This document shows positions 53,144 to 57,852 of a stretch of 64,000 nucleotides of DNA, in pieces; position 1 is the first letter of the stretch; each line of letters starts with the position of its first letter. Origin of the DNA: Myxococcota bacterium. GTDB lineage: Bacteria; Myxococcota; XYA12-FULL-58-9; JASMKV01. The notes under the pieces are model-generated. The model was not told where the DNA came from and did no database searches. It was given only the letters and a program-made list of their open reading frames with translations. A program made the position numbers and the translations under genes. Location: contig JASMKV010000301.1 in assembly GCA_030749035.1 (NCBI GenBank), forward strand, positions 4,523-68,522. The letters are read 5' to 3'.

Positions 53144-55792
53144 ATGCCCACCACTAATCCACTTACCCAGTATACTGGCGACCAAATTGTCGGTCAGCTC
53201 TTTGTGAACCACCATAACGGTGCTGGAATCTTTCCCAATCAGGGGGAAATTCAATTCCTCGCCGGAAAACTCGGACAAGCCGCAAAAAAATTCTCCTATA
53301 TGGGCGACAGCAGAGTCTACTGCCAACTGCATAAAGATCTTCAGGAATACCGGACAGAACGCCAACGTCGGGCTGCCAGACGCGGTACGCATGCGGCCAT
53401 GAATGCCCCCAGACGCAATACCGGTGGCGTCAATTTAAGACGTAATACGGGTAATGTCATTCGCCACAACAGGCACGCAGCGGTGAATGTCAAACAAGAG
53501 GTCAAAGCGATACTCAGCGAATTTGGGTTTAATCCCGTGAGTGCTGCCGAAGAAAAACTTTGTGTCGAGATCTACAATCAACGCAGCAACAATGGGCAAA
53601 ATCCGCCGCGCAGGACCTCCGTCTTTCGCATCGACTTTCAAAGGGCCATCGACACTCATCGGCGTCAAACTCTGCTCCTCCATCCACCTGCCAATACGGT
53701 CTTTTGGCCCACACCCACACCCAATAAACCCGCCAACAGACCACCCTACTGGATCGTTCCGGGCAGCACCAACAATCCGGCAGGCGCAACACCGGCAGCA
53801 ACACCGGCAGCAACACCGGCAGCAACACCGGCAGCAACACCGGCAGCAACACCGGCAGCAACACCGGCAGCGAATAATGCTACCATCGGGCCCTCCTCCT
53901 GGAATAACAATCCAGCCATCAGGGGCAGACGAAGGCGTCAGCAGCTACGCGCCAGAGCCAATGCCAGTGCACCAGCAACACCAACACCGACTGCGACACC
54001 GACGCCAGCGCCAACACCGGCTGCAACACCGGCTCCGACACCGACGCCGGCGCCAACACCGACACCTGCGCCCACACCGGTACCAGGTCCTGCTGCCAAT
54101 CTCAGGAGACGGCGTAACCGCAACCGAAACCGCGCAAGCAACCAAAGAGCGACCAACAACCAACGCTTCGTCAATTCTGCCGGCGGCGGTGGTGCTGCCG
54201 GCACCCAGCGCGCCAACGGCTCTTTTAATCGAGGAAAAATCGAAGTCGCTGCCGAACGCAGCGCCAAAGGCTGCATGGTGAAAATTCACTCGATGCATCA
54301 AGGACAAAACGAAAAGGTGACCCTCACCCTGCAAGCCCGGGTTCGCCACGGCAATGAAGAAAAAATCATCAACCTTAAAACTCTTTCGCAAGGTGAAATT
54401 CTTAACCAAAACGCCTTTGAGGGCCACAATTCTTTTGAACTCGATTACGATGAAATCAATGCGTATTTGGCGCAGCACACCCCCCATCTCCAACTCACCC
54501 CTGGCACCCCCTTGGCCGTGCACGCTTTGTGGGAAGGTCGTGGACATCAATGGGGAGGCTATGGCCGCGGCGGTGTTTTTCATATCCCACAACGCAGCAG
54601 CAACCCCATAGGTCAAAGCGCTGCTGTACAAAATAGCGGCGGAAAGATTCAAGGCGATTTACCTCTGGATATTGGTGTGGTGATGGCCAAAGACTTAACC
54701 AGCCGCTTCCGCGGACTTGTTGAAGGCGGCCAGTTTACATCTCGCATGGAAGCGGAAGTTAAAGCCCGCATTGGCGTCGATGAAATCCCAGAGATTTACC
54801 AAAAGCTTGAAGCCCTGGTCAATTCGAAATGGGCCTCGCGCCGCGTCCTGGGTAGACATTGGACCATTTCCCGCAAGGACCGCTACTACCAAAAAGATGA
54901 TCAAGGCAAAGTGCTGCAAGATGCCAACGGCATGCCCTTGGTTCACCCTGTTAAAGATCGCTACTACGACTCACAAACACGCGACTTGGCTAAAAATCAT
55001 GTCGCCATTCGATTTCGTGAAATGGTCGGCGATAAAGTCGGTAAACTCAATATCAAACCTGGTGAAGGGGTCATGGTCGAAGACAATATCTTTCGCCGCA
55101 TTGAATACGGTATGGATGTTGACCCGAGCATCAAAACCAATCCCGGACTTTTGGCAGGGTTTTTTAATTCGGTCGAGCATCTCAATCCCTTTCGACATAT
55201 TTCAGATCAAATGGGCTTCAACTCCCAACACGTGTTGCGCCCTTCCATGGACCTTGAAGCCAAGCGCTACAAGTATGTCCTCGAACACAAGAACGGTACC
55301 GAAATTGAAATATCTGTCGATGATGTCGTCTGCACCGTGCTCGACCAGCGAGGTAACCCCATGAAGAACCCGGATGGTTCCCTTAAACAGGGGCGTTTTG
55401 GCCAAATCGAGTTTGACCTGGAACATTTACAAACCCAAAGTAATCAAGTTGTCTCCAACAGTGGTGCTGCTTTTTCCACCTTAGGTCAGTTTCGAAATGA
55501 GCAGCAGCAAGCGAGTTGGCTCAATAATATCGATGCCAACGCAACCCTCTCAGGGCCTCCACGTATCCACGAACCCGAAGATGTGGACAACAAATCACTG
55601 ATTGAAACCGAAGGCTACGAATGCCTCGAAAAGCTGGCACCGGGTCTGCAAAAACATCTCCTGCCCAATGGTGCCCCCCCTGCCCTGCAAAAATATCGCC
55701 GTGGGGCTCAGGTTTGCTCTCTGATTCCTATGGAAGATGCGGACAAAGCAGCCTATGAAGCAGCCCTGCAACGGGCCGGAGGCATAGCTTAA
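53144..55792 (+). CDS. Large hypothetical protein (882 aa). It has a basic Arg-rich N-terminal region, a Pro/Ala/Thr low-complexity repeat segment, and a conserved ~500-aa C-terminal module shared with the downstream paralog. The C-terminal half of the module is CYTH-like (triphosphate tunnel metalloenzyme-like)
   Basis: The repeat segment is (ATPA)x7 then (TPAP)n. Conserved blocks shared with the 55936 gene include …RMEAEVKA… (ExExK), …VAIRFRE…KLNIKPG…, …RRIEYG…, …TEIEISVDDV… and …GQIEFDLEHLQ… No signal peptide is obvious. Confidence 0.6.
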   Translation: MPTTNPLTQYTGDQIVGQLFVNHHNGAGIFPNQGEIQFLAGKLGQAAKKFSYMGDSRVYCQLHKDLQEYRTERQRRAARRGTHAAMNAPRRNTGGVNLRRNTGNVIRHNRHAAVNVKQEVKAILSEFGFNPVSAAEEKLCVEIYNQRSNNGQNPPRRTSVFRIDFQRAIDTHRRQTLLLHPPANTVFWPTPTPNKPANRPPYWIVPGSTNNPAGATPAATPAATPAATPAATPAATPAATPAANNATIGPSSWNNNPAIRGRRRRQQLRARANASAPATPTPTATPTPAPTPAATPAPTPTPAPTPTPAPTPVPGPAANLRRRRNRNRNRASNQRATNNQRFVNSAGGGGAAGTQRANGSFNRGKIEVAAERSAKGCMVKIHSMHQGQNEKVTLTLQARVRHGNEEKIINLKTLSQGEILNQNAFEGHNSFELDYDEINAYLAQHTPHLQLTPGTPLAVHALWEGRGHQWGGYGRGGVFHIPQRSSNPIGQSAAVQNSGGKIQGDLPLDIGVVMAKDLTSRFRGLVEGGQFTSRMEAEVKARIGVDEIPEIYQKLEALVNSKWASRRVLGRHWTISRKDRYYQKDDQGKVLQDANGMPLVHPVKDRYYDSQTRDLAKNHVAIRFREMVGDKVGKLNIKPGEGVMVEDNIFRRIEYGMDVDPSIKTNPGLLAGFFNSVEHLNPFRHISDQMGFNSQHVLRPSMDLEAKRYKYVLEHKNGTEIEISVDDVVCTVLDQRGNPMKNPDGSLKQGRFGQIEFDLEHLQTQSNQVVSNSGAAFSTLGQFRNEQQQASWLNNIDANATLSGPPRIHEPEDVDNKSLIETEGYECLEKLAPGLQKHLLPNGAPPALQKYRRGAQVCSLIPMEDADKAAYEAALQRAGGIA
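53786..53869 (+). repeat. Perfect 12-bp tandem repeat (gcaacaccggca) ×7, in frame, encoding (ATPA)7
   Basis: Read directly in the sequence. The minus-strand and alternate-frame ORFs across it are repeat artefacts. Confidence 0.9.
53960..54090 (+). repeat. Degenerate acaccg-based tandem repeats encoding (T/A)P(A/T)P low-complexity sequence
   Basis: The sequence reads …acaccgactgcgacaccgacgccagcgccaacaccggctgcaacaccggctccgacaccgacgccggcgccaacaccgacacctgcgcccacaccg…. Confidence 0.8.

Positions 55793-57852: not shown

Follow-up and report, generated by a model that had tools for sequence, protein, structure and literature searches.

Organization of the Gene Pair

The window analyzed here is a 64,000-nucleotide stretch of contig JASMKV010000301.1 (assembly GCA_030749035.1) from a Myxococcota bacterium, and two of its genes, referred to as A and B, are the subject of this study (Table 1). 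As the initial annotation had stated, they are adjacent on the same strand and encode proteins of 882 and 638 aa. The two are tandem paralogues specific to their lineage and belong to a small uncharacterized subfamily of CYTH/triphosphate tunnel metalloenzyme (TTM) proteins, a new architectural variant in a known superfamily. BLASTP aligned A339–877 with B78–621 at 51% identity and 68% positives over 546 aa (E = 0). The C-terminal homology noticed earlier by eye was confirmed, with all the sequence blocks quoted for it, but its identity had been underestimated at about 40%.

The gene order is AdoHcyase, DnaE, A, B, Pterin_4a (pterin-4a-carbinolamine dehydratase, PCD) and citrate synthase. The DnaE call was based on its length and on a syntenic orthologue with 94% identity. 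The spacer between A and B is 143 bp and contains no open reading frame (ORF), and the convergent PCD gene lies 15 bp past B. The initial annotation had likewise placed the pair between these core genes and had found no housekeeping function for it.

Table 1. Features of genes A and B in the window (TRF, Tandem Repeats Finder; AF2, AlphaFold2).
Feature	Position	Strand	Description
Gene A	53144..55792	+	882 aa; 352-aa leader, beta-sandwich, TTM barrel, helical tail; maximal ORF
A leader part 1 (aa 1–185)	53144..53698	+	orphan, non-repetitive, Arg-rich; basic cluster RQRRAARR at aa 73–80
A leader part 2 (aa 186–352)	53699..54199	+	Pro/Thr/Ala repeats broken by two Arg clusters
Perfect 12-bp tandem repeat GCAACACCGGCA x7.2	53786..53871	+	codes (ATPA)7; TRF 100% matches, score 172
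Arg cluster RRRRQQLR	53927–53950	+	inside A leader part 2; conserved in L015
Second array, imperfect	53976..54079	+	codes (TPAP)n; TRF periods 12, 18, 30, 42; 69–92% matches
Arg cluster RRRRNRNRNR	54104–54133	+	inside A leader part 2; conserved in L015
A beta-sandwich (aa 365–487)	54236..54604	+	mapped from B model; conserved HQWGG (H468) and R475, invariant in alignments A1 and A3
A CYTH/TTM tunnel domain (aa 507–761)	54662..55426	+	residue mapping; fold based on the model of paralogue B
A tunnel residues			E536-x-E538-x-K540, R623-x-R625, K638, R652-x-E654, R708-x-K710, E756-x-D758
A helical tail (aa 780–881)	55481..55786	+	conserved GPPRxH..D and QK motifs
Gene B	55936..57852	+	638 aa; 94-aa leader, beta-sandwich, TTM barrel, helical tail; maximal ORF
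B leader (aa 1–94)	55936..56217	+	start MPRIGN; no Asp/Glu; T/N/S/P/G/A-rich; 9 N-x-S/T sequons
B beta-sandwich (aa 104–229)	56245..56622	+	conserved H124, Q136, R138, H210, W212, R217; R102 just upstream
B CYTH/TTM tunnel domain (aa 250–505)	56683..57450	+	conserved residues in next row
B tunnel residues			D252, R277, E279-x-E281-x-K283, R366-x-R368, K381, R395-x-E397, R452-x-K454, S468, D470, E500-x-D502, H505
B helical tail (aa 524–637)	57505..57846	+	AF2 helices at fragment residues 436–543

Domain Architecture of the Shared Module

The C-terminal module of A and B consists of an immunoglobulin (Ig)-like beta-sandwich, an eight-stranded antiparallel TTM barrel that forms a tunnel, and a helical tail. 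Such a tunnel barrel is a defining feature of the CYTH superfamily. The closest structural match of the B model was the cytoplasmic inorganic triphosphatase (PPPase) YgiF of E. coli. The conserved tail residues of B are G454, P456, H459, D463, Q499 and K500 (fragment numbering). The module had been called novel; it is an Ig-like beta-sandwich joined to a divergent but complete CYTH/TTM catalytic domain.

Three relatives exceeded the threshold of Pfam family PF01928 (CYTH): P0036 (25.7 bits), P0134 (24.6 bits) and P0143 (32.4 bits). A and B did not, so their link to CYTH at the sequence level is transitive. The sub-threshold CYTH match of A covers aa 604–641 (E = 0.005). Among the other direct family scans of A and B, NCBIfam gave only a spurious low-complexity match to SslE, and PADLOC and PHROGs gave nothing. 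PDB sequence searches that used B and the family profile as queries yielded just low-complexity noise such as HUWE1. We consider it almost certain that both proteins belong to the TTM fold and family.

A and B differ in several respects from YgiF and the other bacterial CYTH inorganic triphosphatases (BH2851, GBAA_1210 and the NeuTTM/CthTTM type). Identity to these proteins is about 20%. A and B have long insertions between the barrel strands and an additional N-terminal Ig-like beta-sandwich with its own invariant His, Arg and Trp. The C-terminal CHAD domain of YgiF is absent, and a helical tail of about 110 aa stands in its place. The known proteins are cytoplasmic, whereas A and B carry disordered leaders of 94–352 aa and their sister clade has signal peptides.

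Catalytic Residues and Enzyme Type

In YgiF and AtTTM3, metal 2 is bound by both glutamates of the ExExK motif and by the second glutamate of the ExE motif on strand beta8, whereas metal 1 is bound by the first beta8 glutamate, which is invariant in all TTMs; R56 of YgiF is essential, and K69 binds substrate (PMC4641920). All of these groups were found in A and B. The ExExK motif on strand beta1 is present as E279-A-E281-V-K283 in B and E536-A-E538-V-K540 in A, and it does not vary in alignments A1 and A3 and hardly varies in A4. The basic tunnel residues R366/R368 of B and R623/R625 of A are invariant, as are K381, R395, R452 and K454 of B. The program hhalign aligned the family segment ALRFR with GLRIR, that is, the R-x-R motif that includes YgiF R56. 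The beta8 motif reads E500-L-D502 in B and E756-F-D758 in A. Its first glutamate is invariant, and its second acid is Glu or Asp in 94 of the 106 family sequences and Ala in none.

The TTM superfamily also includes the class IV (CyaB-type) adenylate cyclases of Yersinia and Aeromonas, with which A and B share the fold. Class IV cyclases are marked by HFxxxxExExK, by a small residue in place of the first RxR arginine and by ExA on beta8, and thiamine triphosphatases (ThTPases) by W/Y-x-R-x-R, in which the aromatic residue stacks on thiazole (PMC8233210, the SaTTM study). Where cyclases have HFxxxxExExK, the window pair reads QFTSRMEAEVK, and both RxR arginines and the second beta8 acid are kept. 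It is therefore very unlikely that A and B are class IV nucleotidyl cyclases that form cyclic AMP or a different cyclic nucleotide, whether for signaling or as cyclase toxins: all three published determinants fail, with no His-Phe motif among the 106 sequences, the first RxR arginine retained and the second beta8 acid never Ala. One feature is shared with CyaB, namely a Phe at the nucleobase-stacking position of the cyclases, found in the subclade of the window. This residue hints at a nucleotide substrate but proves nothing.

The aromatic residue of ThTPases was found in none of the 106 sequences, and 68 of them have Ala at that position (A-L/I-R-F-R in the window pair). In VTC4 polyphosphate polymerases, the acidic patch of the tunnel is replaced by basic residues (PMC4641920), whereas B retains E279, E281 and D502; hydrolysis rather than polymerization is therefore predicted. 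Since the determinants of cyclases, ThTPases and VTC4 all fail, A and B are typed as generic two-metal TTM phosphohydrolases. Judged from these residues, both are probably active phosphohydrolases rather than cyclases. The candidate substrates are inorganic triphosphate, polyphosphate and nucleoside triphosphate (NTP), which sequence does not distinguish. A triphosphate-bearing substrate of one of these kinds would enter the basic tunnel via R366, R368, K381, R452 and K454 of B, with metal 1 on E500. Metal 2, held by E279, E281 and D502, would activate the water that cuts the terminal phosphoanhydride bond.

The barrel could also be a mere scaffold, as in the Mediator subunits Med18 and Med20, which have the same fold and show that it can be non-catalytic. 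A and B would then be surface or adhesin-like structural proteins, and surface proteins typically have Ig-like sandwiches and linkers rich in Pro and Thr. However, the catalytic acidic and basic residues are invariant or nearly so even in a sequence set with 17% mean identity. An anchor is also lacking in A and B: there is no signal peptide, transmembrane segment, sorting signal or C-terminal sorting tag. We regard a purely structural role as hardly credible.

N-Terminal Leaders and Repeats

The leaders of A and B are unrelated in sequence, as initially described. The description of both as low-complexity does not hold for A 1–185, which is a non-repetitive and conserved orphan region. Its identity with the L006 orthologue is 89%. 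The first 200 residues of A had no homologue among 5.8 billion clusters, and a single-sequence AF2 model of aa 1–185 gave only helices at low confidence (predicted local distance difference test 59.8). The whole segment A 1–340 is rich in A/P/T/R/N, with 36 Arg and a net charge of +31; the Arg-rich character and the (ATPA)7 run that follows it had been recognized correctly. In leader part 2, the alignment with the L006 orthologue contains 37 gap columns, which are repeat indels, and the (ATPA)7 region differs in both length and sequence.

The Arg-rich leader of A could bind RNA or DNA if the proteins were nucleic-acid-directed triphosphatases similar to the RNA 5'-triphosphatases Cet1 and Pct1. 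We give this reading a very slight chance.

The leader of B has a net charge of +7. The nine N-x-S/T sequons in B 1–95 bear out the earlier report of sequon enrichment, since shuffled sequences contain 3.8 ± 1.6 (P = 0.0017), and most of them are kept in the orthologue. PglB, the bacterial N-glycosylation enzyme, needs an acidic residue at position −2. The leader contains no D/E-x-N-x-S/T context and no Asp or Glu at all, so PglB-type glycosylation was ruled out; any glycosylation of these sequons would have to be of another type. No other ORF of the window has a segment resembling this acid-free leader.

No hydrophobic segment suitable for a transmembrane helix or signal peptide was found in A or B, where the maximum Kyte–Doolittle value of a 19-residue window is 0.67. 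Because both ORFs are maximal, no 5' extension could supply a signal peptide, and the earlier statement that a classical signal peptide is missing stands.

Family Distribution and Selection

When 1.84 billion representatives were searched exhaustively with the family profile, 212 matched at E ≤ 1e-3, of which 87 reached E ≤ 1e-30. The named members all come from metagenome-assembled genomes (MAGs) of Bdellovibrionota, Myxococcota or 'Deltaproteobacteria'. No relatives were found in viral contigs. A pattern scan of metagenome contigs added one locus, and a scan of genome contigs gave just three, because the patterns were drawn from close relatives only.

B is 97% identical to its counterpart in a MAG of an uncultured marine member of Bdellovibrionales, in which the synteny is identical. 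Orthologues of A have 83–90% identity (L006, L015, L016), and those of B have 85–97% (P0001–P0003, L006, L015, L016). The tandem pair, which two further metagenomic contigs carry, is syntenic in four lineages. A neighbor-joining tree groups A and B as sister paralogues, of which A has the longer branch.

The ratio of nonsynonymous to synonymous substitution rates (dN/dS) between the window and its sister MAG is 0.049 for the A module and 0.015 for the B module, compared with 0.031 for gltA. It is 0.12 for A 1–200 and 0.075 for the B leader. Both copies are under strong purifying selection. Change between orthologues is confined to the repeat linkers and occurs by indels; together with the low dN/dS, this does not support the proposal that the family is diversifying. 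A pseudogene reading was rejected, given two intact ORFs and dN/dS values far under 1.

Both signature motifs are present in 46 full-length members, 13 of which carry Sec-like signal peptides located 23–61 residues before the sandwich. These 13 form a single clade that is sister to the clade of the window. At least two members of this subfamily, P0011 and P0033, lie in a conserved cluster of exported proteins (L003:8626-13561; L013:6589-7955, 12847-13944). The other products of the cluster are a helical protein (about 200 aa), one or two paralogues of about 230–240 aa and a protein of about 354–365 aa (49% identity between the loci). All of these neighbors have signal peptides of their own, and none matches Pfam.

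The other 33 members have T/A/G/P-rich leaders with lengths clustering at 90–125 aa. Pro occupies position 2 in 21 of the 33, and Ile or Val dominates at position 4. None of the 30 leaders tested has Asp or Glu in the first 12 residues, and the median number of acids in the first 50 residues is 0, compared with 5 in other proteins of the window. The leader of B fits this family pattern. According to rules from work on Pseudomonas syringae effectors, substrates of type III secretion systems (T3SSs) begin with a Ser/Thr-rich segment that lacks acidic residues and has Pro or an aliphatic residue in position 3 or 4. The leaders resemble this composition (no acid in the first 12 residues in 30/30, I/L/V/P at position 3 or 4 in 25/30, 30% S+T), although these rules are weak and T3SS genes were checked in the window only.

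Several relatives have other domain partners. P0152, a protein of 3,468 aa on a JGI contig, is a giant RTX/cadherin/Big_9 adhesin with ten matches to the family beta-sandwich (profile positions 7–107). Toxins of extracellular contractile injection systems (eCISs) have an N-terminal DUF4157/eCIS_core architecture (Geller et al. 2021, PMC8213781). P0148 (1,202 aa) has exactly this architecture: a long linker connects eCIS_core/DUF4157 to a TTM module at the C-terminus, which matches the family profile with E = 6e-15, and the beta-sandwich is missing. P0148 suggests that a TTM domain can serve as a delivered payload. At its locus (L010:600-5818, also L011 and L012), the last 4 bp of the gene are shared with a TPR gene of 537 aa, and AbiEii-like and AAA_21 genes lie nearby. 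P0148 could represent a TTM-type eCIS toxin not described before, accompanied by a chaperone or an immunity protein; no CYTH/TTM toxin is described in the eCIS toxin papers that we checked. A and B, in contrast, have no eCIS_core/DUF4157 domain, and the 64-kb window contains no eCIS genes.

At two MAG loci that are unrelated, a PilZ gene is the immediate neighbor of a family member. In L001 (8846-9853) it lies upstream in divergent orientation, and in L002 (11997-12710) a PilZ-REC gene lies downstream. This adjacency may be due to chance in PilZ-rich genomes. A large protein with a pyruvate-kinase-like (PK) domain lies by a family member at L018:6515-9895 (1,126 aa) and on the P0007 contig at 2718-4835 (705 aa).

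Genomic Surroundings

The remainder of the window is core chromosome and includes TamB, Omp85, KdsB, PyrG, KdsA, LptA/B, RpoN and UvrA, among others. The initial annotation had described the pair as inserted between core genes. The GC content is unremarkable except in the repeat DNA, and PADLOC and PHROGs scans of A and B and inspection of the flanking genes revealed no mobility, phage or defense signature. A mobile-element or defense-island origin was therefore ruled out: there are no phage or defense matches, synteny is kept, and no integrase or transposase flanks the pair. An Rfam scan of 52800–58400 gave no match, and promoter and terminator scans at the locus performed no better than shuffled sequences.

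The maximal PCD ORF (57868–58338, − strand, 156 aa) overlaps the 3' end of gltA (58205–59491, −) by 134 nt. Its true start is probably internal, because the Pterin_4a domain covers only residues 63–152 and the orthologous call in L016 has only 110 aa. An exosortase (EpsH) gene lies upstream of ahcY. The maximal ORFs of the two (46695–47687, −; 47642–49120, +) overlap head-to-head by 46 nt, so one of the two start codons likely lies further downstream, probably that of ahcY.

Two sulfatases and an FGE-type sulfatase-maturing enzyme are encoded at 989–2302 (−), 3191–4633 (+) and 11971–12741 (−). Such a desulfation capacity for sulfated substrates is unexpected in a Bdellovibrionales-like genome. 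Two more sizeable ORFs have no Pfam family, at 42353–44050 (+, 565 aa) and 4721–6274 (−, 517 aa); the N-terminal region of the former is strongly acidic, low-complexity and E/A/T-rich. An FHA-sigma54 activator (38852–40672, −), whose FHA region also matches Yop-YscD_cpl, lies about 12 kb from the pair. The same distance of about 12 kb separates such a gene from the family member at the unrelated MAG locus L018 (22342–23573), which is probably a coincidence.

Site of Action of A and B

The best overall explanation is that A and B are a pair of TTM phosphohydrolases working outside the cytoplasm of the producer, and we assign it a probability of about 0.5. In the sister clade, the module would be targeted by a Sec signal peptide. 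For A and B, a non-Sec export signal or a spacer is the role proposed for the acid-free T/P/A/N-rich leader (often with an M-P-x-I start, typically 90–125 aa), and the additional Arg-rich clusters of A may bind polyanions or resemble nuclear localization signals. The exported proteins would then hydrolyze phosphoanhydride substrates of prey, host or environment. The predation for which the named host phyla, Bdellovibrionota and Myxococcota, are known counts as a further indirect argument for secretion.

The Sec-type signals of the sister clade, found among other exported proteins, show that the same module works outside the cytoplasm in close relatives. The initial annotation had read the pair as effectors or surface proteins. 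This clade, the eCIS_core fusion, the sandwiches of the RTX adhesin and the acid-free leaders lend that reading indirect support at the family level.

Several observations weigh against action outside the cytoplasm or against the assignment behind it. A and B have no signal peptide, transmembrane segment, lipobox or recognized secretion domain, and signal peptides across the family were judged by hydrophobicity heuristics rather than by SignalP. No secretion apparatus, chaperone or immunity-like gene adjoins the pair, and none recurs beside the leader-type homologues. A cognate immunity gene was not found downstream of the pair, nor was a recurring downstream gene in the loci of the homologues. 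The pair occupies a core-genome position, and purifying selection acts on it as strongly as on gltA, a pattern not typical of effectors in an arms race. To our knowledge, all characterized TTMs are intracellular and act as phosphohydrolases, cyclases or polymerases, and no secreted or toxin TTM was described in the literature searched. The taxonomy rests on a few named MAGs, and the PF01928 scores of A (17.2 bits) and B (13.2 bits) are under the gathering threshold of 23.2 bits.

Many of these points would also be expected if A and B were cytoplasmic TTM phosphohydrolases in the triphosphate, polyphosphate or nucleotide metabolism or signaling of the cell itself, with the leaders as tethers. 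Polyphosphate granules or nucleic acids, for instance, are possible ligands of the Arg-rich A leader, which would then parallel the basic CHAD domain that follows the tunnel of YgiF. Besides the missing secretion motifs and the lack of an immunity gene or secretion apparatus nearby, this explanation is favored by the core-genome synteny in four lineages with very low dN/dS, by the cytoplasmic location of the top structural match, by the +31 charge and conserved RRRR clusters of the A leader, and by the signaling or metabolic neighbors of some homologues (PilZ in L001 and L002, PK-domain proteins by P0007 and P0065). It accords less well with the exported sister clade, the beta-sandwich shared with an RTX adhesin and the eCIS_core fusion in a relative. 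Moreover, the leaders keep their length, acid depletion and M-P-x-I start but not their sequence, which is more like a targeting segment or spacer than a binding domain, and strong basicity is limited to the leader of A. We regard a cytoplasmic role as possible rather than probable.

Export or secretion of A and B, taken as a claim by itself, falls just short of an even chance, and an effector function of the pair is plausible but unproven. We speculate further that the family may be an unrecognized class of secreted TTM effectors of predators. Sec would be the export route of one clade, whereas the remaining members would depend on a new acid-free leader, often with an M-P-x-I start, that a non-Sec pathway reads. 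Such effectors would strip NTP, triphosphate or polyphosphate from prey or host, and A would have been retargeted after the duplication. This wider proposal is rather unlikely.

Implications for the Family

The family keeps the full catalytic machinery of TTMs in a new architecture of leader, Ig-like sandwich, tunnel and helical tail, and part of it is clearly built for export. If the leaders of the window type are export signals, they would represent a new type of secretion signal in bacteria whose killing effectors are largely unknown, and the proteins would bring a new effector chemistry in which triphosphate, polyphosphate or NTPs are cleaved outside the cell or inside the prey. If the proteins are cytoplasmic, they would form an unusual branch of polyphosphate/triphosphate metabolism tethered by intrinsically disordered regions. 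Either way, about 200 formerly unannotated protein clusters now have a structural and catalytic hypothesis with specific mutable residues.

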